From the IMG/VR virus record IMGVR_UViG_3300029288_000079, positions 64,001 to 128,000 of that record: a stretch of 64,000 bases of DNA; one strand, 5' to 3'. Below the pieces are notes generated by a model. It was not told the origin of the DNA and did no database searches. It saw only the letters and a program-made list of their open reading frames with translations. Shown here in pieces: positions 5,302 through 27,730 of the stretch. The position numbers and the translations under genes are program-made. Numbering within the stretch: position 1 is the first letter of the stretch; each line of letters begins with the position of its first letter. The stretch is from a virus. Its lineage: Duplodnaviria; Caudoviricetes.

Positions 5302-8300
5302 TTATGTTTTCTCTAAGGGTAATTTATACAGGTTATAATAAGATAAATCCTTACTTCTAAAAACTCGTGGTTCAATAGCTTTTAAAGCAAATCCATAATA
5401 TTGAAAGTCTCCGGAACCTGAAGCAAATACAGAAACCTTAGACTGATAATAGTTATCCACTGATCCTGACGCTATAATTATAGGCTCAATATATCTAGGA
5501 GCATACTGAATAAATCTTTCTTTAATAGAATCAGGAGTAGATGCCCATGGAGATATCATTATTTCATCTATAGCTATATTATAAGAAGATGAATTATTAT
5601 TACTTATATATAATTCTGTAGGAGAATTAGATATATTCTGTGGATTTACAGTTATAGATCCAGAAGAAATATATTCTCCATCAACAAAAAACTTTGCTTT
5701 ATTATTTTTACATGTTACTGTAAAATAATGATATCTTCTTGGTTCTTCTAATAAATATGTTGATATAGATGCTGATGCGACACTAGTAGTAGATCCTGAC
5801 TTTGCAGTATAAGAAAAAGTTTCTTCATCAGAATCTATAGATATCAAATATCCATCTCCTACCAATGAAGTACCTGCAGCAGATGTAGTCTCGCGCTTCA
5901 AAATTATAAGTCCCGTACCGTCAGCAAAGGTTTTATCAACTCCATTTATTAAAAATTCTGCAGTCAGACCTGCATATGAGTCTATATCATTTGTAGTATT
6001 GCCCGTATAAATTAAACTACTATTAACACCATGATCAACTAAATTCATAGACAAAGCTAGTCTATCTGAAGATCTGCCTATTTCAAATATAGGGTTATTA
6101 GAAGAGCTAGATTTTTGTAGATTATTCATATTACCTGAAATATCCCAAAGTGAACTGCTGCTAAGCATTACCCAATGAGCCCCACAAGCTCCTTTTATTC
6201 CACTATATATAGAATTAATTCCAGTAATATCTATGATACATCCAGAACCAGAACCACCTGTAGTTATATTTCTTTTATTTACAACATATCCACTAGATCC
6301 ACTTGATAATAGAGTTACCTCTGAAACTATACCCCCAGAAATTGCTTTTACTTCAGTTATATTAACAGTACATCCTGATCCTGAACCACCTGTAGTTACA
6401 TTTCCTGTACTTACAGAATATCCACTAGAACCTTCAGAAATTAACTCTAATAAATTAACTTCTCCACCAGTATTTTTATTAATACCTGTTATATTAACAG
6501 TACATCCTGATCCTGAACCACCTGTAGTTACATTTCCTGTACTTACAGAATATCCACTAGAACCACTTGATAATAATGAAATAGAAGATACAACACCTCC
6601 AAGCAGACCCACATCAGGTGTTACCTCAGTTATATTAACAGTACATCCTGATCCTGAACCACCTGTAGTTACATTTCCCGATCCAACTGTATATTTCGAT
6701 TGCCCCCCATAATATAATGAAACTGATGTAGCAGAACCGCCACCATTAGCTTCAATACCTGTTATATTAACAGTACATCCTGATCCTGAACCACCTGTAG
6801 TTACATTTCCTGTACTTACAGAATATCCACTAGAACCACTTGATAATAAATTAACATCTACAATACTACCACCACCACTAGCTTCAATACCTGTTATTTC
6901 AATAGTACATCCTGATCCTGAACCACCTGTAGTTACATTTCCTGTACTTACAGAATATCCACTAGAACCACTTGATAATAATGAAACTGAACCAACTCCC
7001 CCTCCTGATCCTAAAGTTATAATAGACCCAGACATAGTTTGTGTAGGATCACTATACGAACAAAGTATTCCCGAAGCATAATATCCTGGTAAAATTGATG
7101 TTAGAGTAACTACAGGTAATGAACCTGTACCATTCGTAGCAATATGCTTTGTACCTTCATTTATTTTAGATACAATAGCATTAGCGGTATTTACTGCAGA
7201 AGAACCTGATCCTATAGTTAAACTATATCCCGTGTATCCTAAAAGATAAATAGAAGCTATTGATCCTGAACTACTAGTCCCATTTACTGTTATATTAAAA
7301 GATTCTTGTACACCACCACTACTAACAGTTAAAACCTTAGCTACAGCATCACCAGACCCACCCGTTAAAGTAATTAAATCATCTACAGCATAACCTGATC
7401 CACTAGCAGTTGTAGTAGAGTTTATAGCAGAAATTAAACCTGTTAAAGTACTGGCAGAAGCAACTTGTACAGTAGCATCACCAGAACCACCTGTAAGTGT
7501 AAGTATATCTCCTGTTACATAAAGTAATCCTGAAGCAGTTGGGGCAGAAGCTATAGAAGATACCTTACCTATAAGATTTGTTGCTGCTGACACATTAACT
7601 GTAGCATCTCCCGAGCCTCCTACAACAATAAGTCTATCATTAACTACATATCCTGTACCTGAAGCTGTGGGAGAAGAAGCTACTGATATAATTTTACCAC
7701 CACTAGCTTCAATACCTGTTATTTCAATAGTACATCCTGATCCTGAACCACCTGTAGTTACATTTCCTGTACTTACAGAATATCCACTAGAACCACTTGA
7801 TAATAATGAAACTGAACCAACTCCCCCTCCTGATCCTAAAGTTATAATAGACCCAGACATAGTTTGTGTAGGATCACTATACGAACAAAGTATTCCCGAA
7901 GCATAATATCCTGGTAAAATTGATGTTAGAGTAACTACAGGTAATGAACCTGTACCATTCGTAGCAATATGCTTTGTACCTTCATTTATTTTAGATACAA
8001 TAGCATTAGCGGTATTTACTGCAGAAGAACCTGATCCTATAGTTAAACTATATCCCGTGTATCCTAAAAGATAAATAGAAGCTATTGATCCTGAACTACT
8101 AGTCCCATTTACTGTTATATTAAAAGATTCTTGTACACCACCACTACTAACAGTTAAAACCTTAGCTACAGCATCACCAGACCCACCCGTTAAAGTAATT
8201 AAATCATCTACAGCATAACCTGATCCACTAGCAGTTGTAGTAGAGTTTATAGCAGAAATTAAACCTGTTAAAGTACTGGCAGAAGCAACTTGTACAGTAG

Positions 8301-9762
8301 CATCACCAGAACCACCTGTAAGTGTAAGTATATCTCCTACATTATATTTAGAACCCACAACAGTTGGAGTTGAATTTATAGATAATATCGATCCAGATGC
8401 AGTGCTTACTGTCTTAACCTTAACTGTAGCATCTCCAGAACCACCTGTAAGTGTAAGTATATCATCCACCTCATATAGAGATCCCTTAGCTGTAGGAATT
8501 ACATCTATGTTTGATATATTAAATGTTAAAGTACTGGCAGAAGCAACTTGTACAGTAGCATTTCCAGAACCACCTAAAACTGTAAGTATATTTCCTACAA
8601 CATACAGAGATCCGGCAGAATAAGGTGTTGGATTTATAGATGATATTGTTCCTGCTGAAGATAAATCTCCCTCTCCAGCCATCCATTTTATTGGCTCTGA
8701 AGATACTAATTGATAATAGACAGAATCGGGAATAGAAGATGATGCGTAAGATCTTAAATATCTATCATAGTAAGCATCATTCTTAGCCAAACAAGTCCAA
8801 TCTACTACACTTCCACTAGATTGATATATCAAATTAGATGTGTCTAAAACCTCACTTATAATATTATGATTATTACTATCTATCCCCCAAGTAGTTTCTA
8901 TACTATTGGTAAGAAATGAATTTTTCATTTCAAAATAATTAGAATTATATGTTGAGCCTGTAGCACGACTTAAAATATAATCACTCTTATAAAAAAATCT
9001 TGGAACAATATCTGCACGAATATTTTTTGAAATACTTTTTTCAATAGAGTCTTTAAAAGAAGAATCATTAATCAAGGAATAAATATATATGTCCAACCCA
9101 TTGTAAAATTGCTGTCTACTACGTAATTTTGTATTATGACCTAACTTAGTATATGTTACTTTAAAAGTATCCCCTACAGAAAAAGATATATCTGTAGGAA
9201 GAATAGTTCCTATACGAGATATTGATGTGTCAGATATAATAAATCCTTTTCCAATAGCTATAACAGATCCTGATTGATTCGACAAACACCAACCATCATA
9301 TCCAGACCTTTGACTATCAATGATATAGGGGGCCACTCCTAAGTAAGATTGACTAATTAAATCAATACCCATTTGTGTAGTGGCTACATTAGATGCTTCA
9401 TTTATTAATTTTAAGTTTGTACGGTAATCCTGAAGACCTGAATCATTATTATATGTCTCGTAATCTTGATTGCTTTGCTTTAATAATTGTGCAAGTACAC
9501 CAAAATTTTCATATATTTTAGTATTATCACTAGATCCTACAGGTATAGTCCTAACTTCATCAATATTAAGATCATTATATGTATTATTTATTTCTGTAGA
9601 AGCTGAGGATAACTGATCAGCACTCATATAAAGCATCTTGTAAATAGAAGTTCCAAGAATATTTACGGGATACCAACGAGGTGACAAATAAGAAAACATA
9701 TTTGCAACTATTCTATTAACTGAGCCTGCAGCATGATCAGACCATTTTAAGTATATTGCCAT
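5302..9762 (-). CDS. Large baseplate wedge-associated protein with nested beta-repeats and a C-terminal LamG/ConA-like domain
   Basis: Directly downstream of baseplate J; GSGY/GGSG repeats; YHYFTVT..FFVDG..IDEI LamG-like pattern. Confidence 0.7.
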   Translation of the reverse strand: MAIYLKWSDHAAGSVNRIVANMFSYLSPRWYPVNILGTSIYKMLYMSADQLSSASTEINNTYNDLNIDEVRTIPVGSSDNTKIYENFGVLAQLLKQSNQDYETYNNDSGLQDYRTNLKLINEASNVATTQMGIDLISQSYLGVAPYIIDSQRSGYDGWCLSNQSGSVIAIGKGFIISDTSISRIGTILPTDISFSVGDTFKVTYTKLGHNTKLRSRQQFYNGLDIYIYSLINDSSFKDSIEKSISKNIRADIVPRFFYKSDYILSRATGSTYNSNYFEMKNSFLTNSIETTWGIDSNNHNIISEVLDTSNLIYQSSGSVVDWTCLAKNDAYYDRYLRSYASSSIPDSVYYQLVSSEPIKWMAGEGDLSSAGTISSINPTPYSAGSLYVVGNILTVLGGSGNATVQVASASTLTFNISNIDVIPTAKGSLYEVDDILTLTGGSGDATVKVKTVSTASGSILSINSTPTVVGSKYNVGDILTLTGGSGDATVQVASASTLTGLISAINSTTTASGSGYAVDDLITLTGGSGDAVAKVLTVSSGGVQESFNITVNGTSSSGSIASIYLLGYTGYSLTIGSGSSAVNTANAIVSKINEGTKHIATNGTGSLPVVTLTSILPGYYASGILCSYSDPTQTMSGSIITLGSGGGVGSVSLLSSGSSGYSVSTGNVTTGGSGSGCTIEITGIEASGGKIISVASSPTASGTGYVVNDRLIVVGGSGDATVNVSAATNLIGKVSSIASAPTASGLLYVTGDILTLTGGSGDATVQVASASTLTGLISAINSTTTASGSGYAVDDLITLTGGSGDAVAKVLTVSSGGVQESFNITVNGTSSSGSIASIYLLGYTGYSLTIGSGSSAVNTANAIVSKINEGTKHIATNGTGSLPVVTLTSILPGYYASGILCSYSDPTQTMSGSIITLGSGGGVGSVSLLSSGSSGYSVSTGNVTTGGSGSGCTIEITGIEASGGGSIVDVNLLSSGSSGYSVSTGNVTTGGSGSGCTVNITGIEANGGGSATSVSLYYGGQSKYTVGSGNVTTGGSGSGCTVNITEVTPDVGLLGGVVSSISLLSSGSSGYSVSTGNVTTGGSGSGCTVNITGINKNTGGEVNLLELISEGSSGYSVSTGNVTTGGSGSGCTVNITEVKAISGGIVSEVTLLSSGSSGYVVNKRNITTGGSGSGCIIDITGINSIYSGIKGACGAHWVMLSSSSLWDISGNMNNLQKSSSSNNPIFEIGRSSDRLALSMNLVDHGVNSSLIYTGNTTNDIDSYAGLTAEFLINGVDKTFADGTGLIILKRETTSAAGTSLVGDGYLISIDSDEETFSYTAKSGSTTSVASASISTYLLEEPRRYHYFTVTCKNNKAKFFVDGEYISSGSITVNPQNISNSPTELYISNNNSSSYNIAIDEIMISPWASTPDSIKERFIQYAPRYIEPIIIASGSVDNYYQSKVSVFASGSGDFQYYGFALKAIEPRVFRSKDLSYYNLYKLPLEKT
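6871..7513. repeat. 643-bp direct repeat, copy 1
   Basis: Appears identical to 7696..8338 (offset 825). Confidence 0.9.
7696..8338. repeat. 643-bp direct repeat, copy 2
   Basis: Appears identical to 6871..7513. Confidence 0.9.
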
Positions 9763-9763
9763 T

Positions 9764-11170
9764 TTAACTCATCAAATTTATTGTAGTTGTACCTGCTATG
9801 CAATACCCATATGCAGGTAATTGTAAATTACCTAAAGAGTTTTTAACTATAGTACCATCAGAACTTTGAAATGTTGTTAAGGGTAATAATATATCATCAA
9901 CTCCAGGAACATTAAGTATAATCCTAGTCAAATCCGCCTGTTGAATTTCACTACCAATAACTAATCCGGATAAATATGTTGAAAGTTCGGATGTTACTAT
10001 AGCTTCTACATCCGAGAAACTAAATCCACTTATAACTTTCATTGAAAACTCTATATTTATAGGTATTTCCTGAGCCCACTTTACTAAAATATTAGCATTT
10101 AAAGTATCCGTATTAGTTTTATTGAATAAATTTTGAATATCCTCTACAAGACCATTATAATTATAAATAACAGATACTACACCATAACTACTATCTGTTG
10201 ATATAATCCAGTTTAACTTATCTTGAGCTGCAACAGAACCTCTATAGGATCCTGTATCTTTAACAAGACTATAATTTGAGGATGAGATTGATCCAGAAGA
10301 ACTGGACAACACAGATACAATTCCACTAGTTAGTATAGGTTGTTTAGAAAATACTACACTTTCAAAATCAGTTCCTAATGGGATTATAACTTCAGTATTA
10401 GATTTAGTAACTATTCCTTTTACATAAACATCTATGGCTCCCAATTGTTCTCTTTCTGTACCTCCATGAGCTACTATCACAACATCCTCAACAGCTTGCT
10501 GAGATGCTACCAATGATTGTATACCATTCTCTGTACTAACATTAACTCCTAACCATCTTGCAGCTATCCTAGAGCATAATTGATCATTTGATTCTGCATC
10601 AACCCCACCTGTTGTAGCACTAGTATTTGTACATCCGTTTATACCATTTATAGAATTTATTAGAGATACTATAGTTCCTGACCCCACATTACCTACGGTA
10701 CCACCTGTAAGAGCCTCTATAGATGCGGATATTTCATATCGACCTGTTACTGCATTAAAATAATTAGATGAAAAATCTGCATACATAACTACTGTTTGAA
10801 TAGTTGAAAATTGTATATTTGAAGAGGTTGTAGATGATAATGTGGCCACCGTAGTATTAACAGGTATAGTAATGTCTGCTGTTGGTACGCTGTTCACATA
10901 AAATACAACATTTCCTCTGGCAGATCTAGCAGATTTCCTTATAAGACCCATGTTATTCGCAATAACATTCAATCCGGAATCTGAAGCTGTTTCTGTAGAC
11001 TGATCCAATTGTGTTAACTCTACTTCATCATATAAAGATTCTATCTCCTTGGCAGGTGCTGATATTACTACATCAGACAAAAAAGTTCCTTCCGATGTAT
11101 TTGCAGTAGGATAAAGACTCAAAATATATGACTTCATTGAATTAACAATATTTATAAAAGACTTAATCAT
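9764..11170 (-). CDS. Baseplate J-like wedge protein
   Basis: GLIRK.A..ARG.V.F, GTVGNVGSGTI, GGVDAESNDQL..RI, VPGVD motifs. Confidence 0.9.
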   Translation of the reverse strand: MIKSFINIVNSMKSYILSLYPTANTSEGTFLSDVVISAPAKEIESLYDEVELTQLDQSTETASDSGLNVIANNMGLIRKSARSARGNVVFYVNSVPTADITIPVNTTVATLSSTTSSNIQFSTIQTVVMYADFSSNYFNAVTGRYEISASIEALTGGTVGNVGSGTIVSLINSINGINGCTNTSATTGGVDAESNDQLCSRIAARWLGVNVSTENGIQSLVASQQAVEDVVIVAHGGTEREQLGAIDVYVKGIVTKSNTEVIIPLGTDFESVVFSKQPILTSGIVSVLSSSSGSISSSNYSLVKDTGSYRGSVAAQDKLNWIISTDSSYGVVSVIYNYNGLVEDIQNLFNKTNTDTLNANILVKWAQEIPINIEFSMKVISGFSFSDVEAIVTSELSTYLSGLVIGSEIQQADLTRIILNVPGVDDILLPLTTFQSSDGTIVKNSLGNLQLPAYGYCIAGTTTINLMS

Positions 11171-12772: not shown

Positions 12773-14449
12773 TTACGATGGTGTCAATTTGTAATAGCTA
12801 ACCCACAGATGAGATCCCTTGTATATTATCTTCGTTGCCTCATATTCTTCTCCCACACCTACTGGTGGTAATGAGTGAGTGTATTCAGCAGTAACTCCTT
12901 CTGGTGTAATACCTAAAACTTTAAAATTATCGGTATTTAGTGTATACTCTATTGAAAATGCCCCAGTATTATCGCTTGCAACAGCCGCATAAGTTAACTC
13001 CACTGCAAAAGTTGGATAAGATTGTATTGCGAGTGTAGATTTATTAATTCTTATAAAATTATTAGATATAGGTACACTATAATTTGACATAGTTGCCCAA
13101 ATATAGTCACCCCCATCACATACACCCAATATGTATAAAGGTCCTGGTAATGTAATTGTATTGATAACACTACCATCTTTAGAAATACGGTACATATCAG
13201 AGAAATCGCACCACATATGTGTACCATCGTAAACAAAATCATAAAGATTGATAGTTCCTGGAAAATCCAAAAACCACGTAAATACCCCTGAAGGACTTAC
13301 TTTATATATTACACCATAATGCTTAGTTGTATCCCCACCTGCAAACCAGCAATCAGTCCCATCGCACCCTAGAGATCCATACTGAAGATTGTAATTCAAA
13401 TTAGCAGGTATATTAGCTGTATATATTGATGGTACACCTGCTAATGTAATTTTACCAAATGCAAGATCAAAATCTATATCGTTATCATACCCAACAAACC
13501 ATATTTCATTATTTCCTATAGCCATTGATAGAATACTATATATCCCAGTAGCCCATGTCGCTACTATGTTACCATTTACATCTACCTTACGTATGCTACC
13601 GCTGTAACTAAAATATCCGTATGTACCATCTGATACTACGCTTCCACCTAAGCTAACTATAAGTGTGTCCCAAGTTTTTTTAGGATCATAAGGTTCTTCA
13701 GTTACATGTGGTATAGCTGAGAATGAAGCTTTATTATCTGTAGAAATTTTACCTAATATTTTAATTTTAGGCCTTCCAATAGACTTAATATCTATTATTT
13801 TTTTTAATTTAGATATTTTAATAGATTTAATATCTACTATTTTTTTTATCAAAAGTTTTTCTAAACCTATATTAGGATTCTGTACATTATGATATTCAAA
13901 AGGTTTTTCAGGTATTAGCCTTACTGGATCTGTAGGCAAATACTCTTCTCTATATGAATCTGAGGATCCTATAGAATCTTTTTCAAAAAACATTATTCCA
14001 GGACAAGTTGTTGAAGATTCATCGTCGTGGTAAATTATATCAGTTATAGTAAGTATATCTTTTTTCAAGAATGCCAGCACCTGTTGCAAGGAGTTAAGTT
14101 GAAAATTTGATGGTCTTACAATATCAAAGTTACCTACTAAAGCTATATGTACATAATGTAGATTGGAGTAATAGGTGTCTCCTGCATCCGACAAATGATG
14201 TCTCGTAAATCTTTTAGCTAATGTATTTATACTAACATTTTCGGAATAATTATTAGAATTGCTTCCAAACATCCATCGAGCAGTAAGATCGATCTTACCA
14301 TCATAATTTATCAGAATATCATAAGGAGCTCCAAATTGTTGATTCTTTATAAATATATTATTGACCTCTTTACCAACTATACCTGATTGAGTATTAGTGT
14401 GATGTAACATGATCTTAGTAATATCAGTATTTAATCTTATAGAGATCAT
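12773..14449 (-). CDS. Amidase_2-like N-acetylmuramoyl-L-alanine amidase fused to a beta-propeller-like domain
   Basis: LHHT...YD.LI..DG...IALVGNFD...YH...TTCPG; C-terminal DGTxxW repeats. Confidence 0.7.
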   Translation of the reverse strand: MISIRLNTDITKIMLHHTNTQSGIVGKEVNNIFIKNQQFGAPYDILINYDGKIDLTARWMFGSNSNNYSENVSINTLAKRFTRHHLSDAGDTYYSNLHYVHIALVGNFDIVRPSNFQLNSLQQVLAFLKKDILTITDIIYHDDESSTTCPGIMFFEKDSIGSSDSYREEYLPTDPVRLIPEKPFEYHNVQNPNIGLEKLLIKKIVDIKSIKISKLKKIIDIKSIGRPKIKILGKISTDNKASFSAIPHVTEEPYDPKKTWDTLIVSLGGSVVSDGTYGYFSYSGSIRKVDVNGNIVATWATGIYSILSMAIGNNEIWFVGYDNDIDFDLAFGKITLAGVPSIYTANIPANLNYNLQYGSLGCDGTDCWFAGGDTTKHYGVIYKVSPSGVFTWFLDFPGTINLYDFVYDGTHMWCDFSDMYRISKDGSVINTITLPGPLYILGVCDGGDYIWATMSNYSVPISNNFIRINKSTLAIQSYPTFAVELTYAAVASDNTGAFSIEYTLNTDNFKVLGITPEGVTAEYTHSLPPVGVGEEYEATKIIYKGSHLWVSYYKLTPS

Positions 14450-14451
14450 TA

Positions 14452-16758
14452 TTATTTCTGCTCAAATTTTGTATGTTTATTACTGCTATCTGAGATATCA
14501 CTTCTATCACTCCCATTGACAGTATTCATACTACTCATAAAATTAGTTTTATCTAAAGTATCTTTTGCAGTGAATGTAGATGATTTGAGTCCAACTTTAG
14601 ACAGTGGATCTGTACTTTTATCACTTTTAGATGAATCATTTAAAGAACTCTTTTTAGATTTTTCTGTATTTTTAGAAGCACTTTTATGGTTTATAGAAGA
14701 TCCCATTAGATCGCTGGCTGAAATATACAAAATCTCAGGAACGGTTTCCCATGGCTTTCTTCCGTAAGACAAATGCAGAGTTGTCTCAAACCTGCTGCCA
14801 AAAGTAAAAGAATGATCCACACTCTCTACATAGTATATCATATTACGTATAGGAACATAGATAGGATATCCTGGAGATATTTCAGGCCTACCAACTATTG
14901 TGAGTTGTCCTGTATTATTTTCTGCTAACATTTTCTTAAATAGATTCTTTGCATACATCTGTAAAACTTGATGATTTTTTGAAAACATATCATTATTTAC
15001 TTTACCACTATTATCTATAAATGTTCCTTTGGTATTAATTAACGGATTACTATATGTAAAAATTCTTTGTCCATATTGAAGTATAATATTTTCATCTCGT
15101 ACTGTTGCAGTATAAGGAACTAATTCATTTATTTCTCCGTCAGAGAATTCCCAATCAGGTTCAGTATTAACAGTAATAGAACTATATATTTTAGAATCAT
15201 CCTCTATAAAGCCATAGCTAACAATATCCTCTGTTCTAACTATATATATTTCCGGATTCTCGGCAGTAATAATATGTGTGTTGTTAAATCTAGGTGGACA
15301 AAACCAAACTTCCCCATTTCTATCGGCATAGAAGGTAAATGCAGAATCTTCAGCAACTTTATAAGCAATATCTCTTTTTACCTGAAAGTCATTCTGAAAA
15401 AGTCTATAGTTACCATCTTTAAAGGCCATTTCATATGATCGAAACCCTTCTATTTTTGAACTATGTATAAAAGGATCAATAATATGAACTTTAGAAGGTG
15501 TAAAAAGATCCCCCAATATACTTTTAAAAGAGGCTAATGAGTAATTTTTATTACTATTCCGCATCTTTTTTAGCCTAGAAGCTTCATCTTTATCATCAAT
15601 TCTTTTAATAATCTTATTACCTTGATTATCTACCGATATTTCAATATCATATTGTGTTTTTTTATTTCCATCTGTATCAGGTGCAATCTCCCAATATCCC
15701 GTACCTTTTATATTTATATTTCTTCCAGCAGATTTAAAATTACCTCCTACTGTAAAATATTTTATAATCTCAGGTGGTGTTAAACTTCTAAGTATGTCTG
15801 TATACAGAGTTATGTCATCTTCAGCAGATCTATCAGGAGCTACATCTTTGTTAGACGACAACGAGGGATTAACATTAACCACAGATAATCGCATCATCTT
15901 AGTTACATCTTCACCCTGTATCTCAATAGTATTATTATTCTCAGAATATCCCTGTTGAACTGTATTAATAAATCCAGTAAAAACTCTCATAAGCTTCCTA
16001 CCATCATTACTATTCGAAGTAGACTCCGACTCTTCATTTTCAAATCTTTTAGATAAAAATATTACAATTCTATCCATTGGAGATATCCGGCATCTACCTC
16101 TTAGAAATAGTTTAGTATCCTCACCCTGTTCCTCTTTGTCTCTATATTTTGTAATAAAATCTTCATTTTTATGTTTAATTACTGTAAACTTTTGCATCTC
16201 CCCAGATGAATTTTTAGTCTTTAAAACTTTGAAAGATATAATATTACCATTACTTACACCTATAAATGGATCTGTAGTACCTGTAGGCATTATCCATATA
16301 ACTCCACCCTCACTATTAAAAGCCCAACGTTCTACTATAGTCTGATTTATATCTCTACGATAATATACAGGATATATGCCATTCTTATCTTTTAAAGAAA
16401 TATGATCAAAACTCAACCAATCATCATAATTTTTAAATTCATAGTAGTTTGCCCCGCTAAAGTTAGCGTTAGCAACACCTTTTAAAACACTTTTTGTTTT
16501 ACCTTCACTGTAACCATATAGATTCTCTATTTCTACTACAGGATCTTCTTGAGCAAGATACTTGTTAGCAGTATCTGAGATAGTTAGACTAAATGTTCCA
16601 GGACTGTTATTTACAGTCAAATTAACTGAAACAGACATTATTTCTGGCTTAGATCCTATATTAGAGAACATCATAGTCTCAGATTCTTTTATCTGATTAT
16701 CTTGAAATCCTGGAACAATTAAAACCATACAGTCAGGATAAAAATGCTTTGTATTCAT
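14452..16758 (-). CDS. Baseplate hub protein (gp27/gpD-like)
   Basis: FTGFI..V, IQGED, FYADRNG, GRPEI.PGYP.Y...YYVESVDHSF..G motifs. Confidence 0.8.
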   Translation of the reverse strand: MNTKHFYPDCMVLIVPGFQDNQIKESETMMFSNIGSKPEIMSVSVNLTVNNSPGTFSLTISDTANKYLAQEDPVVEIENLYGYSEGKTKSVLKGVANANFSGANYYEFKNYDDWLSFDHISLKDKNGIYPVYYRRDINQTIVERWAFNSEGGVIWIMPTGTTDPFIGVSNGNIISFKVLKTKNSSGEMQKFTVIKHKNEDFITKYRDKEEQGEDTKLFLRGRCRISPMDRIVIFLSKRFENEESESTSNSNDGRKLMRVFTGFINTVQQGYSENNNTIEIQGEDVTKMMRLSVVNVNPSLSSNKDVAPDRSAEDDITLYTDILRSLTPPEIIKYFTVGGNFKSAGRNINIKGTGYWEIAPDTDGNKKTQYDIEISVDNQGNKIIKRIDDKDEASRLKKMRNSNKNYSLASFKSILGDLFTPSKVHIIDPFIHSSKIEGFRSYEMAFKDGNYRLFQNDFQVKRDIAYKVAEDSAFTFYADRNGEVWFCPPRFNNTHIITAENPEIYIVRTEDIVSYGFIEDDSKIYSSITVNTEPDWEFSDGEINELVPYTATVRDENIILQYGQRIFTYSNPLINTKGTFIDNSGKVNNDMFSKNHQVLQMYAKNLFKKMLAENNTGQLTIVGRPEISPGYPIYVPIRNMIYYVESVDHSFTFGSRFETTLHLSYGRKPWETVPEILYISASDLMGSSINHKSASKNTEKSKKSSLNDSSKSDKSTDPLSKVGLKSSTFTAKDTLDKTNFMSSMNTVNGSDRSDISDSSNKHTKFEQK

Positions 16759-17528
16759 ATAATTAAATTATTATTTACTGCTAGAGTTGTAGATAATTCT
16801 TCTTGAACCTTAAATGTAAATGAGAAATCTACTATATAAGGTTTTTCAGAACTGGCTATGGGACCAGTAAAATCGGTAAAGTATCCTATGAAATATTTAT
16901 CATAATAGTTCATCCCTAACAAAATTGTATCTTTCTGATTCTTAACTCTATGATCACTGTCATATAAGGCTTTCAATTGATTTAACCTCTGCCAAGCTAT
17001 AGATGTAGTAACATCATCTTCTTTACCTAGAACAGTACCATGTGTAAACTTATGCAAGCCACCTGACTTTCCTTCAACCCTTACTTCTGTTAAGGCATCT
17101 CCCCAATGTTGTATTTCCCACCCACCTCTAGTTCTTATTTCTGTTTGTAACTTCCTATACGTAGGAGTTATATGCTGAGGATCTAGATAGAATTCAAATA
17201 CATTTGGAACTGTCGCATTATCTTCTTCGTTAGTTTTTTCTTCCGTACCTTTTATATAATATTTTTTACTATCCATTTTTATATAAAGACCATATTTATT
17301 TGGACCATGCACAGTTTTGTCCATATACTGAAATGTGGATCCGCTATATTCAGGTATACTACTTGGATATATTCTGACTTTACCCTCTACCCATGATTTA
17401 TCAGAATAGATAATATCATTTTCTGAGATATCCTCAAGATACCATGAAGAAGCTAATTTCTCAAACCCAACTTTTTCATTGTTCCCACTTCTCTTTAATC
17501 TATATATTCTAAAAGGAATTTTACCCAT
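16755..17528 (-). CDS. Tail tube initiator-like protein
   Basis: DPQ.I......RTRGG....WG and Y.GYF..F...YxFSF pattern; lies between tape measure and hub. Confidence 0.65.
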   Translation of the reverse strand: MGKIPFRIYRLKRSGNNEKVGFEKLASSWYLEDISENDIIYSDKSWVEGKVRIYPSSIPEYSGSTFQYMDKTVHGPNKYGLYIKMDSKKYYIKGTEEKTNEEDNATVPNVFEFYLDPQHITPTYRKLQTEIRTRGGWEIQHWGDALTEVRVEGKSGGLHKFTHGTVLGKEDDVTTSIAWQRLNQLKALYDSDHRVKNQKDTILLGMNYYDKYFIGYFTDFTGPIASSEKPYIVDFSFTFKVQEELSTTLAVNNNLII

Positions 17529-18090
17529 TTAATGCTCCCATTATTCCAAAACTAAGGTTAGAATTTTTTTTAGGTGTTAATAATACACCCCAATTTTGAA
17601 AGGATTGTCTAGGTAAAGTATCTATATCATCTCTTTGCATAACTAATTGTAACTGAGTATCATCATCATCGATAAACAATGTTGTACCCAAAGGCTTACA
17701 ATATTCACTTTTATCTATATTCATTTTTAAAACAATTTCATAATTAAAGTATTGATATATATTAAATTTTTTCAATAGCATAATAGAAGGTTGTGCATCA
17801 AAAGGTCTGTTTAATTTTTCCCCTCTACTCACAATACCCATATTAACATCATTCTGATCCAGTGTCTTTAACACATCTAAAACATTCTCTTGAAGCTCGA
17901 TTATATTTCCTCTAATATCCTGTAAAACTCCTATAGATATAAGCTTATAAGGAGATTCTGTTTCATATGCCCCAATACCATCTCCATTAGGAGAATGACA
18001 ATTCCAGATAGTATTATCTAGATCAAAGATAATAGTATCATAAGGTTCAAGAATAGTATTTTCTAATGTATTATTTGAATATTCTGTCAT
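17521..18090 (-). CDS. HAD-superfamily phosphatase (Mdp-1-like)
   Basis: IIFDLDNTIW (DxDxT), VSR, K, FIDD motifs. Confidence 0.85.
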   Translation of the reverse strand: MTEYSNNTLENTILEPYDTIIFDLDNTIWNCHSPNGDGIGAYETESPYKLISIGVLQDIRGNIIELQENVLDVLKTLDQNDVNMGIVSRGEKLNRPFDAQPSIMLLKKFNIYQYFNYEIVLKMNIDKSEYCKPLGTTLFIDDDDTQLQLVMQRDDIDTLPRQSFQNWGVLLTPKKNSNLSFGIMGALNG

Positions 18091-18730
18091 AACCTTTTTG
18101 AGTAAGAACTATATTGTGATCATCATCTACATCTAGATATTTATTTACTAACATAAAGTTATAGGCTCTGACAATCTTCATTCTTACTTCACCCCTATTT
18201 GCTTGCATTTTAGCTACATCATTTCCAAATGTATTTTTTAATGATTTATTTGTAACATAATCTATAAAATCTTTACTATGTTTGAAAACCTTATCATACT
18301 TATAAATAGTTTTAGCTATCATTTCAGGCAAGTCTTCCAACTCAGATAGTTGCTTATACTCTTTATCCTCAGGTGTAGCGTTTTCATCTAAAGTATTTTC
18401 TTCGGGAACTTTTTTTTCTGTATTAGGCTCTGCTATAGACTCATTTTTCATCACATAAAAATATTGTCCCCCACCTAATAAAGATCCTGTAGAAAAAAAG
18501 AACCACCAAGGTCCTACTTCAGTTTGAATAGCAAAACAACCTGCATACTTATTACTAAAATCCACTACTTTATATGGCCTATTAGCTTGTATTCTTAATT
18601 TACCATTCTTGTCACGAAGATCTTCTTTAGTAAAAACGGTATCCCCAACCTTTAACTTACCCCCCTCCACGAAGTCTACAGTTAAATTAATATCTGCCTT
18701 CTTTATAAAGGCTGTTCTCCAATTATTCAT
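18071..18730 (-). CDS. Hypothetical protein with N-terminal WRxxF..KKAD motif
   Basis: Coupled ORF; LKVGD SH3/KOW-like start. Confidence 0.65.
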   Translation of the reverse strand: MNNWRTAFIKKADINLTVDFVEGGKLKVGDTVFTKEDLRDKNGKLRIQANRPYKVVDFSNKYAGCFAIQTEVGPWWFFFSTGSLLGGGQYFYVMKNESIAEPNTEKKVPEENTLDENATPEDKEYKQLSELEDLPEMIAKTIYKYDKVFKHSKDFIDYVTNKSLKNTFGNDVAKMQANRGEVRMKIVRAYNFMLVNKYLDVDDDHNIVLTQKGYDRIFK

Positions 18731-18732
18731 AT

Positions 18733-20841
18733 TTACCTTGTATTATTATAGGTTTGAACAGATGTTGATGAGTTAAATACAAAATCAATCACAGCTCTAT
18801 TATTTTCCACACTCTGTTTTCTTACATTACCATCATCTGTATGTATGTATAAATCTATAGTTGAGCTATTTCCCCCATTTCCAACAACTTCTCCATTGAG
18901 AATTTTCTGTGTAGCAGCTTCTTTTCCTCCAACATCTTTAATAAACTGATTTGCTTTATCAGAAGCCGTATTGATTTGAGATTGCATAAATTTATTATAT
19001 TCCTTAATAGAACCTGCTCCCTGTGAAGCTGCCCTACGTTGCCCAACAGCTTCAGAAGTATTTAACATACTTATCTGTACAAAGTCTTTGGGAGCTACCT
19101 TAGCTAAATTTGTCATCATCTCACCACGTTGTTTAGATTGAATTTCATTGAGTGTTTCAGCCCCTTCTGCAGCCATAAAAGGTATAGATAGATATGGTAA
19201 AAATTTACCAAAAGACTTAGCTTTATTAAAAAGTCCTCCAGTTTTACTAATTTTACCTCCACTATTAAAACCATTCATTGCAAAGGCAAGATCTGCTTCT
19301 TCAGACATAGTTGAGGAAGCAATTGAAGACCCTCCACCCCCTCCGAAAAGACCTGATAAAAATTTTCCACGAGGTGCCCCCTTACCTCGTAATAATTTCC
19401 ACATAGCATAAAATTGAGCTGCATCTGCAGCCATTCCAATACCTGTACCTACAGTTTCAAGTGCAGTGGGAGCTATATCTCTAACTGAATCTGGTAAATT
19501 ATTTTGTAATGTTTGTTTTTTTTGTTCAAACCAATCTTTTAAAGTCCTATTACCCTTTATAACTCCTTTTAAAGATTCTTCATATTCAGTAAATAAAGTA
19601 GGATTTTTTTTAAGAGATTCTTGCCAATCTTTTAGTGATTTATTTACATCCCCTTGTATTTTTCTATAATCCTCTTCTGATACTTTAGACATGGCTAACA
19701 TCTTTTCTCTAGCTTCTTGTCCAGTACCTATGTTCATAAACTTGCCAAAAGTATTTACCAATGCCATACTTCTAGGATCATCCCCCATTCCTGGTAATTT
19801 CCTAGAAACATCAAACATTAACTTTATGATATCTTCAGGTTTTCTAACATCAATTCCTTGAGTACTTACACCCGCCATATGTGCTGCACCTAAAAGTTGT
19901 TCCTTACCTGCAACAGAAGTAGATGTTGAAATGGCCCCACCAATTATACTTCCTGCATTAGTAGCCCCAAATTGAGCTCCTTTCATACCCAAGGCTCCTA
20001 CCATACCCATTGCCTTGGCATAAGCCTGCTCTTCATTAGCAACTCCGGGAGTACCTATTAAGCTACTAGCAATATCATTTATATTGCTAAGACTTTGGCC
20101 CATATTACCTACATTACCAGAAAAACTTAATAAACCTGAATTTTTATGGACAGCATTTGCTAAAGATCTTTGTATAGTAAATTGCTTATTTGTATTACTT
20201 ACACCACCAAATCCACCATGTCTACTTTGAAACCCTAATATAGAAGATGCTAAATCAGTACCTCCACCAACTTGATACATACCTGCAAGAGTGGCCAATG
20301 ACTCCATATTTTTAGTATCCATATTATTTCCAGTCATCTGACCAAATAACTGCTTATAAGCCTGCATAGTCTGTTCTGCAGTAGCTACATTAGTATTACC
20401 TATAACATTTCCTCTGAATACACCCATATATTTTGCACTACCTAAAGCAGTTGTAGCACCCCCAGGTAAATTGCTCAAGTTGCTAAAATGCCCCATCTGT
20501 AAAGCAGTTTCTCTCAGCTGATTATTCAAGTTAGCAACAGATTGAGTAATACCACCAATAAATATACCTACACGAGCAAATTGTGTCGAGGTATTAACTA
20601 CCTTCTCCATATTAGATATTTGTTCTTTAGTTAGATCATTAGCCTCTCGAATAGCTTTTATATAATGATTTCTTATCTGATTAGATAAACCTATAAACAC
20701 TGTACCAGACATTATAGGATTTCTAGATATGCTACTTAAACTATTTCCAAATTCTTGAAGAATTGTAGTGGCACCAAGTAACTTAGTAGAGGCATCTCCA
20801 ACAGTCTGTTCAGCCTGCAATATATTTTTGTCTTCAGCCAT
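18733..20841 (-). CDS. Tape measure protein
   Basis: Ala/Gly-rich helical protein downstream of tube and chaperones. Confidence 0.75.
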   Translation of the reverse strand: MAEDKNILQAEQTVGDASTKLLGATTILQEFGNSLSSISRNPIMSGTVFIGLSNQIRNHYIKAIREANDLTKEQISNMEKVVNTSTQFARVGIFIGGITQSVANLNNQLRETALQMGHFSNLSNLPGGATTALGSAKYMGVFRGNVIGNTNVATAEQTMQAYKQLFGQMTGNNMDTKNMESLATLAGMYQVGGGTDLASSILGFQSRHGGFGGVSNTNKQFTIQRSLANAVHKNSGLLSFSGNVGNMGQSLSNINDIASSLIGTPGVANEEQAYAKAMGMVGALGMKGAQFGATNAGSIIGGAISTSTSVAGKEQLLGAAHMAGVSTQGIDVRKPEDIIKLMFDVSRKLPGMGDDPRSMALVNTFGKFMNIGTGQEAREKMLAMSKVSEEDYRKIQGDVNKSLKDWQESLKKNPTLFTEYEESLKGVIKGNRTLKDWFEQKKQTLQNNLPDSVRDIAPTALETVGTGIGMAADAAQFYAMWKLLRGKGAPRGKFLSGLFGGGGGSSIASSTMSEEADLAFAMNGFNSGGKISKTGGLFNKAKSFGKFLPYLSIPFMAAEGAETLNEIQSKQRGEMMTNLAKVAPKDFVQISMLNTSEAVGQRRAASQGAGSIKEYNKFMQSQINTASDKANQFIKDVGGKEAATQKILNGEVVGNGGNSSTIDLYIHTDDGNVRKQSVENNRAVIDFVFNSSTSVQTYNNTR

Positions 20842-20842
20842 A

Positions 20843-21487
20843 TTATAATATTATATCCAAATCTTTTGGTAGTTCAGAATCTGCTTCTGCCATAGCTTTT
20901 CGTTGCTTATTAAAAGCCACATTATCATGCTTAGCTACCTTATGTTTTTCTACATCAGACCACAATTTAGGGTTTATCCATGGGATGATGCTATCTCTAA
21001 CAGCTTCTATAAGATCTATATTTTCTTCCTTATCTATAATAGTACTATAAAGAATCCACATCTTTTGTTCATCTATCATGTCTTTAATAGGTGTCTTTGA
21101 AGCATGATTATAAATTATCCAATTACTTCTAGATATATTTTTTCTACAAAAATCTTCTACATTTTCTCTTACATATTCAGACCATTCCTCCAAAGCACCC
21201 TTAAAATCACTCCATAATTCTGAAACTAAATAAGTAGATAAATTTTTAATTATATTAGTATTTTCACAGCCAAAACTTTTCTCTAATATATTTATAGGCA
21301 TGGTGTTACATAAACCAATCAATGTAACTGGAAACTGTAATTTATTAAGATTTATATTTGATGAATCTTGAAAAGGACGCAATAATACTTTAGGAGGTAT
21401 CCCGTCTATAAAAGCTTTTTCAAGATCTGGTTGGGTAAACTTAAACCGCTTTGGGGCAGGACTCTCTATGTTTCTTAAATTCCTCAA
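20843..21487 (-). CDS. Second tail assembly chaperone ORF (start uncertain: TTG near 21487 or frameshift fusion)
   Basis: Open frame overlapping the end of 21441..22196, directly before the tape measure gene. Confidence 0.55.
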   Translation of the reverse strand: MRNLRNIESPAPKRFKFTQPDLEKAFIDGIPPKVLLRPFQDSSNINLNKLQFPVTLIGLCNTMPINILEKSFGCENTNIIKNLSTYLVSELWSDFKGALEEWSEYVRENVEDFCRKNISRSNWIIYNHASKTPIKDMIDEQKMWILYSTIIDKEENIDLIEAVRDSIIPWINPKLWSDVEKHKVAKHDNVAFNKQRKAMAEADSELPKDLDIIL

Positions 21488-22196
21488 GACTATCCAGCTC
21501 CTTCCCACATTTACAATTATAATCGGAGAACTCGAAAGAGCCATCAGGCTCATCGACTTTTGCTTCAGAGTTAGTTTCTGAAGCTTTTGTAGCAAGATTT
21601 GATGATTCTTCCTCTTCATTTTCTTCGAAATTAAAATCTTGCAAGGATATTTTATCTTTACAATTTGGACATATAATTTCTGCAAGACTATATTTTAAAA
21701 CAAAAGAATCTTCTGGAAAGTTTTTTTCTGAAAAAACTTGACCACAATAACCACAAGATAAATTATTATTAAGAACTCTAACTTGTTTTAATTGCAAGCC
21801 TGAATATACAAATTGCAATCTCTCTATAACAATATTTTCTAGATTTTGAATCCAGCCCCTCAGATATTGTAATTCAGAAAGATTTGTTTTATGCTGATCA
21901 TTATATTTTTTAAGTTCTTCAAGAGAAATAAGAGATCTACCATCTATAGACCAAATAGATCTTATTAGTGTTTCTTGAACTGTAGATATATCTCTTGCAT
22001 TTTCTGGAATCTCATCACAATATTTAGCAATATCTAAAACCTCTCCTGCATTACATATACGCATACCAAAAATTTTATTTTTCCATTTAGTTCCAACCCA
22101 ATCATGGAAGGGTTTTATTTCATAAATACTACTATCTTTTGTTATTTGACCCAGCTCCTCCAGCGAAGTCAATATATCATTGACAGGCTCCATCAT
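21441..22196 (-). CDS. Tail assembly chaperone with Zn-finger motifs
   Basis: Lies between tube and tape measure; acidic; CxxC pairs; GGAGG SD. Confidence 0.65.
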   Translation of the reverse strand: MMEPVNDILTSLEELGQITKDSSIYEIKPFHDWVGTKWKNKIFGMRICNAGEVLDIAKYCDEIPENARDISTVQETLIRSIWSIDGRSLISLEELKKYNDQHKTNLSELQYLRGWIQNLENIVIERLQFVYSGLQLKQVRVLNNNLSCGYCGQVFSEKNFPEDSFVLKYSLAEIICPNCKDKISLQDFNFEENEEEESSNLATKASETNSEAKVDEPDGSFEFSDYNCKCGKELDSLEEFKKHRESCPKAV

Positions 22197-22211
22197 ATAA
22201 CCTCCATTATA

Positions 22212-22658
22212 TTATCCAATAACAATGAATTCCACTTGCAGAGAAACATTCTCTGTAACTGTTATCTGACCCTCACGAATATTTTTACCTAGAGAATCTA
22301 TCCAGCAATTGTGATATTCGGTCTTTTTAATTTCACCATTAGGACCTTGAAGAATCTCCGTTATATTAATCGGGTTTGTAGCTTTGGATACTTCATCAGA
22401 ATTGCTAATACCTAGGGCTTCTAATAGACTATTTTCATAAGTTTCTAATCTATCAATAGTTATTCTATATTCACTACGGCCAGGAACTATCTCAAAGGTA
22501 TCTTTGTCACTAGCATTTCTATTTATCTCAAAAATGCGTTCCAAACGTCTACTCATTGTAGCATTAAACCCTTGTAGAGTTCCAATAGCCTTACCATTGT
22601 TATTTTTTACAGTATAGGCGTAAGAAACAACTGTTTTTCTATTTGGAATACTTGCCAT
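22212..22658 (-). CDS. Tail tube protein
   Basis: Follows sheath; IG.LQ..., EIVPG, Y.NCWI motifs. Confidence 0.85.
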   Translation of the reverse strand: MASIPNRKTVVSYAYTVKNNNGKAIGTLQGFNATMSRRLERIFEINRNASDKDTFEIVPGRSEYRITIDRLETYENSLLEALGISNSDEVSKATNPINITEILQGPNGEIKKTEYHNCWIDSLGKNIREGQITVTENVSLQVEFIVIG

Positions 22659-22720
22659 TTTATTTTTCCTTTATAAGTTTAATTCTATAAATTACAAAAT
22701 CTATATTATCAATCATTGTA

Positions 22721-24190
22721 TTATCCGACATATGTTGATACAGTACAAGAAATAAATTTTAACGGGTATAATGGCATATAACTACATGTAAGATCCACCT
22801 GTCTTGGTTCTATAGAATTCTGAACCGCTGATATAGCAACCTCACCTGTTATAGGATTATCAACTTGGCCATATCTATTTATTTCCCTAGCATTAATTAG
22901 AGATTGTAAAATACTACCACCAGTTGCAATTACATCAAGTATTGTTGTAGATGTTATTACAACGCCTTTACCTTTAAATGCATTATCTAAACCATCTTTT
23001 AAAGTTCGTTTTACTAATCTACGAACTGATTCCACAGACTCTTCCTCAGTATCTGCTGACGTTGAGTCGGTAGTGATACAGTCTCTAATAGTTATGACAC
23101 CTGAACGACTTTCTAATACGAGAGCACCTGCAGCTCCCAATTGATTCATCTCATATTCATTCCACTTTTCATCTTCAATAATTATACCTGTAACAACCAT
23201 TCCAGTTAAAGGTGTTGATCGTAAAGATTGAGATCCTTTAAGACCTGCAACAGCAATAGCTGCATAATTACCATCAAGTTCCATATATGCATTGTTAGCG
23301 TCTTTTCTACGCACACGACTAGGAACAACATATATTCTTCGTCTATCATTTATAGCATTAGCTCGATAACAATATGTTCCAGAAGCTGTAGTATCACCTA
23401 TAGTATCAAACCCATCTGATGCACTATAGGGTGAAGGAGATCCATCCATAAGTCCACGACCTCTATTAGCATTGTCCATAGTTAATACATGCGTATAGGC
23501 ATATGTTATAATAGATTGCTGACTTGCAGCAGTAACACTTCCAGAAGGAAATACACATACAACAGATTCAATATTTTTCTTTTTCTTCAACGTATCAATT
23601 GCAGTCTTATATGCAGCTTCTGAATAAGTAGATCCAGAAGACTGAACCAACATAACTGCAGGACTTCCATTCTCAATTGCAATTGACCCAGCAATTGCAA
23701 GTATACCATTTGTGGTATTTTCAGAACCATACTTTGCTAGAATAGAAGTTTTGTCACTCATAATAGCAGGATCAAATTGAGTTGTAGGAACATCATAATT
23801 ATATGTTACATAGTATGTTGATCCTGTTGCAGGAATATCTGCAGGAACTGTACCTTGTGTCCAGCTCATAATACCTGTAGTTCCTGTAGAACCTGATGCA
23901 GCTACATTATTTGCATATAAAGCACCATTAATTACTATATCAATTGCAGCGGCAGATCCTGAAGCAATTCCTGGAGTATTAGCTATTTGTGTTGTAACAA
24001 CTGATGTAGCAGGATATGCAGATAGATTATCTGTAGCCCCAACACCTCGCGTAATAGCCTCATCAATGACATATCTTTTCATCGGACCTATTCCGACAAT
24101 TGCCGGAATCATATTATCACCAGCAATATTAATTATTCTTGGATTGTCTACTGTGTTTACAGTAGTTCCAGGTTGTCTATAACTAGGCAT
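22721..24190 (-). CDS. Tail sheath protein
   Basis: Y.QPG N-terminus; C-terminal EPRQVD..CSYMPLYPLKFI. Confidence 0.9.
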   Translation of the reverse strand: MPSYRQPGTTVNTVDNPRIINIAGDNMIPAIVGIGPMKRYVIDEAITRGVGATDNLSAYPATSVVTTQIANTPGIASGSAAAIDIVINGALYANNVAASGSTGTTGIMSWTQGTVPADIPATGSTYYVTYNYDVPTTQFDPAIMSDKTSILAKYGSENTTNGILAIAGSIAIENGSPAVMLVQSSGSTYSEAAYKTAIDTLKKKKNIESVVCVFPSGSVTAASQQSIITYAYTHVLTMDNANRGRGLMDGSPSPYSASDGFDTIGDTTASGTYCYRANAINDRRRIYVVPSRVRRKDANNAYMELDGNYAAIAVAGLKGSQSLRSTPLTGMVVTGIIIEDEKWNEYEMNQLGAAGALVLESRSGVITIRDCITTDSTSADTEEESVESVRRLVKRTLKDGLDNAFKGKGVVITSTTILDVIATGGSILQSLINAREINRYGQVDNPITGEVAISAVQNSIEPRQVDLTCSYMPLYPLKFISCTVSTYVG

Positions 24191-24259
24191 TATGTATCTC
24201 CTTAAATTTAATTTGTCTACTATCTATGATATATATGTGTTTTTTAATAAAAAAATCAA

Positions 24260-25330
24260 CTAGTCAGTATCATAAAATGCTGTTGGTATTGCCGTTGTAT
24301 CCTTCAAATAATTAGCATTAAACTGTTGTGACCATTCTGTCATTACAGTAAGTGATATCGGTACAGTAAAAATAAGGTCTTTTTCACCTCTTCTACGATT
24401 TTCTACAGCTCCTATTCGAATATCCTTAATATTTATACCTGCAACAGATAGTGTTCCTGAAGAGTTTGAATAAGAGATAGTAGGTAACTCCATACCATCA
24501 ATAGCATCAGATTCTCTGCTTATAACAGCATGTTTACCTAAAGATAAATATTGAATTATAAGTTCAGACAAATCATAAGCTTGTGCAGTTTGATTCTTTG
24601 ACATGCATCTAAAGACCATATTACACTCATATAAGCCACCAAATGTTAGACTACTTGGAAATCTTACAAATCCTACAACACTTCCTGTGGATTGGATACT
24701 ACCCGTACCAGAAATATATTTTGTAGTCCTGGTAGTATCTATTCCAATATAATAATCACTACCCGAAGCTACTTGAAGTTCAATCCAATAATCTTGTTGA
24801 TCTAACGTAATTGTTGGAAATAATTCAGTTTCCATATCTTGAAATGTTATTTCAGTTATACCTGATAAAGACCCTGAAGCAACTAATATAGGTGTTGTAA
24901 GATAATCTTTATATAAATTAACTGTAATGTCATCTCCACCCCCACCTGTCTGTGACCAAGCTCCTTTTAAAGATATGTTTCCTAAAGTTTTAGTTAGTAA
25001 ATTATCAGTCAATGAAAATGCTACTGGAGCATTTGATGATAAAATAACCATTGAAAGATTTCTATTACCTATAATCTCCACACTATCAGCTCCTGTAGTT
25101 AAAAAGTCATTAAATCCAAAAGGAGTTATAGATCCTCCATTACTTCCTAACGTTATTACAGGATATTTCTCATTCTCATTATAAAATTGTTCAAATACTA
25201 ATTGCTCACTTCCACTTGAGAATTGTACAATCTCTACTCCCAGATTAACCCATTGAGAGTTATAACGAAAAACTCTGCGGAGATAATTTGTTAAATTACT
25301 TATGAGATATTTGTTTAAATGATAATGCAT
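24260..25330 (-). CDS. Tail terminator / neck protein
   Basis: Upstream of sheath; E.YP.I motif; internal beta-rich insertion. Confidence 0.55.
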   Translation of the reverse strand: MHYHLNKYLISNLTNYLRRVFRYNSQWVNLGVEIVQFSSGSEQLVFEQFYNENEKYPVITLGSNGGSITPFGFNDFLTTGADSVEIIGNRNLSMVILSSNAPVAFSLTDNLLTKTLGNISLKGAWSQTGGGGDDITVNLYKDYLTTPILVASGSLSGITEITFQDMETELFPTITLDQQDYWIELQVASGSDYYIGIDTTRTTKYISGTGSIQSTGSVVGFVRFPSSLTFGGLYECNMVFRCMSKNQTAQAYDLSELIIQYLSLGKHAVISRESDAIDGMELPTISYSNSSGTLSVAGINIKDIRIGAVENRRRGEKDLIFTVPISLTVMTEWSQQFNANYLKDTTAIPTAFYDTD

Positions 25331-25571: not shown

Positions 25572-25710
25572 TAATTTCTATGCCGCAAATTGAATGTAAG
25601 TGTATTTTGTAATTTTTCTACAGTCCATATACCATCTATTACAAGATAGAGAAGATATTTGTAAGGTTTTAAAATATGTACATAATTTTTTATACTACTA
25701 TCTAACTTTT

Positions 25711-26580: not shown

Positions 26581-26610
26581 ATTTTATTTTCCTTGTATTA
26601 TTCCAACTAA

Positions 26611-27207: not shown

Positions 27208-27208
27208 T

Positions 27209-27700: not shown

Positions 27701-27730
27701 GACTCTCTCCTTTAATTTATAATTAATTAA

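Follow-up and report, generated by a model that had tools for sequence, protein, structure and literature searches.

The window analyzed here, a stretch of 64,000 nucleotides (nt), comprises bases 64001-128000 of a 181.7-kb IMG/VR virus record that is rated complete (about 33% GC). Within a series of minus-strand virion genes lies the gene under study, which encodes a protein of 1486 amino acids (aa), here called P0001. Its start is located 2 nt downstream of a Baseplate_J / gp6-like wedge gene (9764-11170; phrog_6, E 5e-35; PF04865, E 1.8e-18), and it therefore occupies the gp7 / P2 gpI position in the baseplate module. The central part of P0001 is an array of 815 residues (window 6220-8664), built from two kinds of 43-aa unit, A and B, and from two copies of a longer domain, X. 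As seen in Table 1, the units follow each other in the order AAAA X B AAA X BBBBBB, giving 7 A, 7 B, and 2 X. It is rather likely that this region, residues 367-1181, forms a nested stalk in which a single chain runs out and back through recursive domain insertion.

Table 1. Features of the P0001 gene in the window (ORF, open reading frame; HMM, hidden Markov model; regex, regular expression).
Feature	Residues (aa)	Window position	Strand	Basis or remark
P0001, whole gene	1486 aa	5302..9762	-	ORF call; 3' of Baseplate_J / gp6-like wedge gene
N-terminal region	1-366	8665..9762	-	No family match; presumed baseplate attachment
A1-A4, four 43-aa units, proposed first halves	367-538	8149..8664	-	regex + HMM
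A1		8536-8664	-	
A2		8407-8535	-	
A3		8278-8406	-	
A4		8149-8277	-	
X1, proposed short-branch tip	539-640	7843..8148	-	phrog_165 similarity
B1, proposed second half paired with A4	641-683	7714..7842	-	regex + HMM
A5-A7	685-813	7324..7710	-	regex + HMM
A5		7582-7710	-	
A6		7453-7581	-	
A7		7324-7452	-	
X2, proposed long-branch tip	814-915	7018..7323	-	Identical to X1
B2-B7	916-1181	6220..7017	-	regex + HMM
B2		6889-7017	-	
B3		6757-6885	-	
B4		6625-6753	-	
B5		6484-6612	-	
B6		6352-6480	-	
B7		6220-6348	-	
Laminin_G_3 / concanavalin-A-like lectin domain	1297-1413	5524..5874	-	PF13385
643-bp repeat, copy 1: second half of A3, A4, X1, B1, linker	475-689	7696..8338	-	Both copies compared; junctions in contig L002
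643-bp repeat, copy 2: second half of A6, A7, X2, B2, linker	750-964	6871..7513	-	Exit junction in fragment P0010

The units were parsed by regular expressions (A: GGSG[DN]A; B: TTGGSGSGC) together with hidden Markov models. The order that a first-pass annotation had read from the sequence (A1-A4 X B1 A5-A7 X B2-B7) was reproduced in this way, at 6220-8664 compared with the 6215-8645 given there. The two classes are clearly separable: with the A model, the scores are 35-44 bits for A units and below 0 for B units, and with the B model they are 39-46 bits for B units and 3-9 for A units. Both classes have the same length of 43 aa and align colinearly (hhalign E 5.6e-4), with the common skeleton G-x-I-x-S-I ... 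G-S-G-Y-x-V ... T-x-T-G-G-S-G ... V-x-V. Because of the shared length and colinear alignment, A and B are two subtypes of one 43-aa repeat, predicted to have three strands. The 'open' and 'close' halves of the first-pass annotation are thus not unrelated pieces. Of the 3432 possible orderings of 7 A and 7 B, 429 are balanced in the manner of brackets (1 in 8), and the balanced word of P0001 taken alone is weak evidence for nesting. Of the 13 junctions, just two are A-to-B turns, and each of these is occupied by an X domain (1 in 78).

An exhaustive HMMER search with aa 360-1199 against 1.84 billion representatives yielded 107 relatives. With A and B models that were seeded from the P0001 units, iterated on matches, and never tuned for balance, 112 homologues were written as strings of A and B. 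The numbers of A and B units are equal in 88 of these 112, compared with 33.6 expected for independent labels, in agreement with the earlier expectation that homologues keep the two counts equal. Strict bracket words were found in 87 of the 112. The commonest forms are AB (16), AABB (16), ABAB (8), AAABBB (7), A4B4 (4), and A5B5 (2), accompanied by 13 mirror words of the type B^nA^n, from BA up to B6A6, and by branched words such as AABABB, BBABAA, and BBABBAAA. Among arrays of block type, the two runs are of equal length in 42 of 53 (permutation mean 12.8, maximum 26 in 10,000). Homologues with an even total of units and unequal A and B counts number only about 6. Since AABB words are not makeable by tandem duplication of AB, and unequal even totals are rare, the rule of the family appears to be 'equal and nested', beyond merely 'even'.

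P0010 is the sole one of the 107 relatives that shares the N- or C-terminal regions of P0001, and since the flanking regions are otherwise not common to the relatives, the repeat block seems to be a mobile module. In proteins with a single pair, the alignment extends over about 85 aa, and the AB-pair stretch matches segments of 65-105 residues in PHROG families of head decoration, neck (Hc2/Hc3), wedge, and fibre proteins. One AB pair thus seems, at the level of sequence, to behave as one domain. No relative of the AB pairs was found in Pfam, NCBIfam, or PDB, including a search with an AB-pair profile. The ESM Atlas returned unnamed viral clusters only, with scores below 0.9, and contains no model. 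The Shiga toxin B subunit was rejected as a candidate relative: the NCBIfam rows reach 18 bits against cut-offs of 165-201, which is repeat noise and no toxin signal.

A profile search of a larger database extended the set to 421 proteins at E ≤ 1e-5. Its phage members again include A4B4 arrays (P0115-P0120, P0128). In several phage proteins of about 820-1280 aa (P0040, P0087, P0115-P0120, P0124), a PF11134 (phage stabilisation) region is present, and a clean A4B4 block stands N-terminal to it, which would place the same nested module on neck proteins. P0040, the only member of this group scanned against PHROGs, also matches the C-terminal region of phrog_578, 'head closure Hc3'. Long runs of B-like units occur in giant cellular proteins from Methanoperedens and Planctomycetota and in FlgE hook fusions. 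Large cellular proteins such as P0130, P0134, P0135, and P0154 contain 12-21 B-like units and almost no A, and several are from Candidatus Methanoperedens and carry multicopper-oxidase domains. The giant FlgE-type hook proteins P0121, P0126, and P0200 (PF06429, PF00460, PF07559; 1288-2528 aa) have 15 units (P0200) or 34 units (P0121, P0126), mostly in alternating BA order. Out-and-back insertion is likewise required of hook outer domains.

Covariation between proposed partners was examined in the balanced proteins only. Mutual information was summed across every pair of columns, and reassignment of partners inside each protein served as the control. All bracket-partner pairs together gave 372.0, compared with 357.6±0.9 in the control. 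For partners that are not adjacent in sequence (106 pairs in 37 proteins), the value was 496.1 against 480.7±1.6, and none of 200 controls reached it. In this non-adjacent set, the excess is located between the third strand of A and the first strand of B (A-beta3 x B-beta1, Z 6.6) and between the first strand of A and the third strand of B (A-beta1 x B-beta3, Z 6.8). Mirror-image cells are part of this excess, A37-B14 (Z 7.1) with A13-B39 (3.9), and A39/40-B10 (Z 4.0/7.9) with A9-B41 (5.5), with index sums near 50, as expected for antiparallel ladders. Cells that adjacency could explain vanish in the non-adjacent set (A41-B3, Z -0.1). A generic effect of 'same depth' across proteins is small (354.8 vs 348.7±5). 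Covariation of beta3 with beta1 in both directions is the pattern that a closed six-strand meander barrel predicts.

These findings suggest the following architecture. Each 43-aa unit would be a three-stranded half-barrel, and one A and one B would together close a six-stranded antiparallel barrel. At the pole open to insertions, A-beta3 would lie beside B-beta1; at the pole with the two chain termini, B-beta3 would lie beside A-beta1. With its termini side by side, a whole barrel could fit into the loop between the A and B of another. The order of units in P0001 is then parsed as A1(A2(A3[(A4 X B1)(A5(A6(A7 X B2)B3)B4)]B5)B6)B7, a branched parse with two identical X tips that would follow from the bracket grammar and the partner covariation. 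The trunk would consist of three barrels, A1·B7, A2·B6, and A3·B5, and the top loop of the third would emit two tandem inserts, forming a fork. The short arm would be one barrel, A4·B1, and the long arm three barrels, A5·B4, A6·B3, and A7·B2, with each arm capped by X. As the chain would pass through every barrel-to-barrel joint twice, a stiff rod is expected. The path of the chain would lead back to its origin and thereby keep the N-terminal anchor together with the lectin-like C-terminal domain at the baseplate. Assuming about 2.7 nm per barrel, the X tips are estimated to be held about 13 and 19 nm out. The barrel fold, the geometry and dimensions of the rod, and a role as spacer or adhesion arm are what we infer from this parse.

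Two AlphaFold models were obtained. Run 1 (aa 360-1200, 63-row alignment) had a predicted local distance difference test score (pLDDT) of 51 and was confident only in A7 and B2-B6. Run 2 (aa 685-1046, 16 colinear A4B4/A5B5 homologues, register checked) had a pLDDT of 44 and a predicted template modelling score (pTM) of 0.27. Run 1 places three strands in each unit, and its two-unit blocks match six-strand barrels, the best being residues 99-188 of the T4 sheath protein gp18 (Z 5.2, root-mean-square deviation 3.2, 75 aligned). The equivalent sheath domain was also matched in KP1, Milano, E217, Bas63, P1, Mu, and diffocin, followed in the fold ranking by EF-Tu domain-2 and then by the N-terminal barrels of F1-ATPase. 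Lipoyl-domain rows, including EmrA and Spr0693, were weak (Z 3.1) and stood below the sheath and EF-Tu-type barrels. Foldseek against PDB gave nothing at E ≤ 0.001, with gp18 as its top row (E 2.1). Run 1 contains one discontinuous barrel, A7+B4, with another barrel inserted inside it. The units thus appear to nest in this predicted model, though with partners other than those of the bracket parse and with the A units unmodelled. The proposal of the first-pass annotation that each A+B pair is one beta-domain with the next inserted in it is partly supported, by the bracket counts and by partner covariation; its predicted pairing of A7 with B2 is at odds with run 1, in which A7 pairs with B4.

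Several points weigh against the nested stalk. Both AlphaFold models are of low confidence (pLDDT 51 and 44), and the confident part of run 1 pairs B2 with B3 and B5 with B6 (pLDDT 70-95), besides its A7 with B4 instead of B2. Similarity to known folds is weak (Z about 5; Foldseek E 2.1). About 21% of the homologues are unbalanced, some of which are fragments or have units missed by the models. The long B-only runs of large cellular relatives, for example 16 in P0130, indicate that pairing need not be of A with B. Covariation may partly reflect joint duplication of partners rather than contact. A pair potential learned from homologues was also applied to the near-identical B units of P0001, where 66% of permutations equal the nested score, so that this test was without power.

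Some of these points would be expected if neighbouring units paired regardless of type, as beads on a string: (A1A2)(A3A4) X (B1A5)(A6A7) X (B2B3)(B4B5)(B6B7). Runs of even length would then be the only rule, and there would be no nesting. The three runs of units in P0001 are indeed all even (4, 4, and 6), and both the B2+B3 and B5+B6 pairs of run 1 and the B-only arrays of cellular relatives agree with such an arrangement. However, the alignment of run 1 scarcely covered the A units, and its B-B pairing may stand in for absent partners. Equality of A and B is left unexplained by neighbour pairing, as only about 6 unequal even totals stand against 88 balanced proteins. Same-type neighbours also show no covariation excess (A to A, 469.9 vs 464.9±4.7; B to B, 504.7 vs 502.5±6.0) and no beta3/beta1 signal, whereas distant bracket partners have both. 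Neighbour pairing is therefore considered unlikely. Alternatively, each unit might be a small module of its own, or a rung in a continuous beta-solenoid, with equal counts as a product of duplication history. The homology and equal length of A and B fit this, and very similar unit copies suggest recent amplification or conversion. Yet AABB and A^nB^n words in general are not producible by tandem duplication of AB, the equality holds in more than 80 proteins that are mutually less than 50% identical, and covariation specific to partner and strand would not be anticipated. This explanation is regarded as very unlikely.

A further arrangement keeps the pairing of A with B and moves it between chains, so that the A run of one subunit would meet the B run of another in a domain-swapped or antiparallel oligomer. 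It would require equal numbers of A and B just as nesting does. Oligomers are common among the fibre and baseplate proteins of phages. Domain-swapped recursive inserts have been described in the Si3 insertion of cyanobacterial RNA polymerase (PMC11515920). Against it, simple antiparallel pairing between two identical chains requires that position i be complementary to position n+1-i, and in P0001 position 5 (B1) would then face position 10 (B3). The words AABBAB and AAABBBAB fail in the same way, whereas brackets within one chain fit all 87 words. Pairing between chains is held to be quite unlikely, and the single-chain nested stalk is the preferred explanation of the array.

The two X domains of P0001 are identical over 102 aa. 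Residues 2-95 of X match positions 98-192 of the 493-position 'tail sheath' profile phrog_165 (E 2.6e-6), and no match to this profile was found for the AB-pair proteins, so the likeness to sheath protrusions belongs to X only. By this match, the X tips may be contiguous barrels of the sheath-protrusion kind (barrel plus helix). Whole P0001 gave no sheath match in PHROG or Pfam, which means that the sheath core domains were not detected and that the 102-aa X alone matches. X as a degenerate AB pair was not significant by hhalign or HMM, where it aligned in a B-like manner only, with a 21-residue insert. No relative of X was found among PDB sequences or, by tblastn, in 50,697 phage records.

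The exact duplication of 643 bp that the first-pass annotation had reported is present at the coordinates listed in Table 1. The arrangement around it can be followed in two related sequences. The 96%-identical contig L002 (IMGVR_UViG_3300037067_013222, region 6001-8376), from another sample, has an identical gene start and the order A1-A4 X B1 A5 A6 A7, and reads through copy 1 and the unique spacer into copy 2. It stops about 126 nt inside copy 2, a typical assembler break at long exact repeats. The fragment P0010 (A7 X B2-B7) shows how copy 2 passes into the run of B units and has a C-terminus identical to that of P0001. As L002 and P0010 together cover the repeat junctions, the arrangement of units in P0001 is no assembly artefact.

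The same annotation had ascribed the second branch to this duplication, which could not be upheld. The exact copy is limited to the tip (half of A3/A6, A4/A7, X, and B1/B2), which is too little to account for the second branch by itself. For A5, the first half of A6, B3, and B4, similarity to any other unit does not exceed that between random paralogues, and these parts seem to be old and diverged. Identity of A5 to other A units is 55-59% at the DNA level and that of B4 to other B units 57-70%, the lowest in each class; the two are partners in the bracket parse, an anecdotal observation. We read the 643-bp repeat as the trace of recent copying or conversion, by which one of two older arms acquired the tip of the other. 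A fresh tandem duplication of 825 nt as the origin of the second branch is rejected: the exact copies are separated by a 182-nt spacer that is about 50-70% identical to the stretch preceding copy 1, no closer to it than unrelated units are. Any tandem unit of 275 aa would also add 3 A and 1 B and would be unbalanced. Of the pattern that a compensating duplication of BB should leave (B3~B5, B4~B6), only B3~B5 is backed (83%), with B4-B6 at 67%.

Outside the repeat array, the sole family recognised by Pfam in P0001 is Laminin_G_3. It scores 30.9 bits when all of P0001 is searched and 36.1 bits with a C-terminal fragment, both of which pass the gathering threshold of 27.6. Residues 1-365 matched nothing in Pfam or PHROG at E <0.1, and the N-terminal region shares nothing with the 112 repeat homologues; because the gene adjoins the Baseplate_J gene, this region is presumed to attach P0001 to the baseplate. 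No match to whole P0001 was found by tblastn in the 50,697 phage records, and no relative by sequence search of PDB. Further along the minus strand of the baseplate module (12773-14449), a 558-aa protein has an N-terminal Amidase_2 domain (N-acetylmuramoyl-L-alanine amidase, PF01510, E 7e-8) and is probably a tail-associated cell-wall hydrolase. Most ORFs of the virion module at 14452-32875 on the same strand, including those of 768, 702, 489, and 1714 aa, are without PHROG or Pfam match, and no sheath, tube, or tape-measure gene could be named by PHROG or Pfam among the neighbouring ORFs.

Proteins in which the chain runs out and back are known from several surface structures, including the D0-D1-D2-D3 series of flagellin and hook, the periplasmic adaptors AcrA/EmrA, and the stalk of streptococcal antigen I/II. 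Like the proposed stalk, they consist of levels that each combine an N-side and a C-side segment, with a functional domain at the tip. Links to them are found in the repeat relatives fused within giant FlgE hooks and in the weak fold matches to the lipoyl domains of EmrA and Spr0693 (Z 3.1). Unlike the proposed stalk, they use a different fold, or a pair of helices or polyproline II (PPII) segments, at each level, and none is forked. The sheath protein of T4 is a nested phage tail protein as well. Aksyuk and colleagues are said to have described in 2009 that domain I of gp18 (aa 98-188) lies inside domain II, which itself lies inside domain III. The profile match of X covers precisely the inserted domain of gp18, and residues 99-188 of gp18 are the top match of the modelled two-unit barrels by both aligners, a weak match (Z 5.2; Foldseek E 2.1). 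In contrast to P0001, gp18 has three different folds, about three levels, and no split repeat, and P0001 has no sheath core.

The closest architectural parallel is Si3 of the beta' subunit (RpoC2), built of HABAS / sandwich-barrel hybrid motif domains, in which, as is proposed for P0001, domains of one family are repeatedly inserted into each other in an out-and-back, forked arrangement. A 2026 survey described eight domains, a six-level recursive architecture, and bifurcating nodes in Si3 (PMC13114784). Recursion and forking are thus already published. Si3 belongs to the trigger loop of a polymerase and P0001 is a phage baseplate protein; for the P0001 repeats, no Pfam match to the HABAS / sandwich-barrel hybrid motif clan and no PDB sequence relative were found, and thus no sequence link between the two. 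Unlike in Si3, the halves in P0001 are homologous 43-aa units, the bracket rule holds in at least 87 proteins, and seven levels would be reached when X is counted. A literature search on nested or matryoshka phage domains found nothing relevant. What is new here is an unnamed and unsolved domain family made of two homologous halves, its family-wide bracket grammar, which covariation backs, and, in a baseplate protein, a probable forked case with seven levels.

On balance, we lean towards the broader reading that the A/B unit represents an unnamed split-barrel family with a true bracket grammar, distributed over proteins of the phage head, neck, baseplate, and fibre and over some surface proteins of cells. 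The unit would serve as a kit for rods that can be adjusted in length and forked. P0001 would be a forked case of seven levels, against the six published for Si3, and its A and B counts were apparently kept equal through unbalanced rearrangements of the repeats. If this is true, balanced A/B brackets would predict the topology and length of virion appendages straight from metagenomic sequence. Nesting would also assign about 800 residues in a baseplate protein that is otherwise unannotated, together with parts of over 400 relatives that lack a Pfam family, and would caution annotators that such arrays are not simple tandem repeats. The family would be the second natural one after Si3 to tolerate unlimited self-insertion, and it would be well populated in phages. 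It would also inform the evolution of long rigid protein rods and may offer a scaffold for design.

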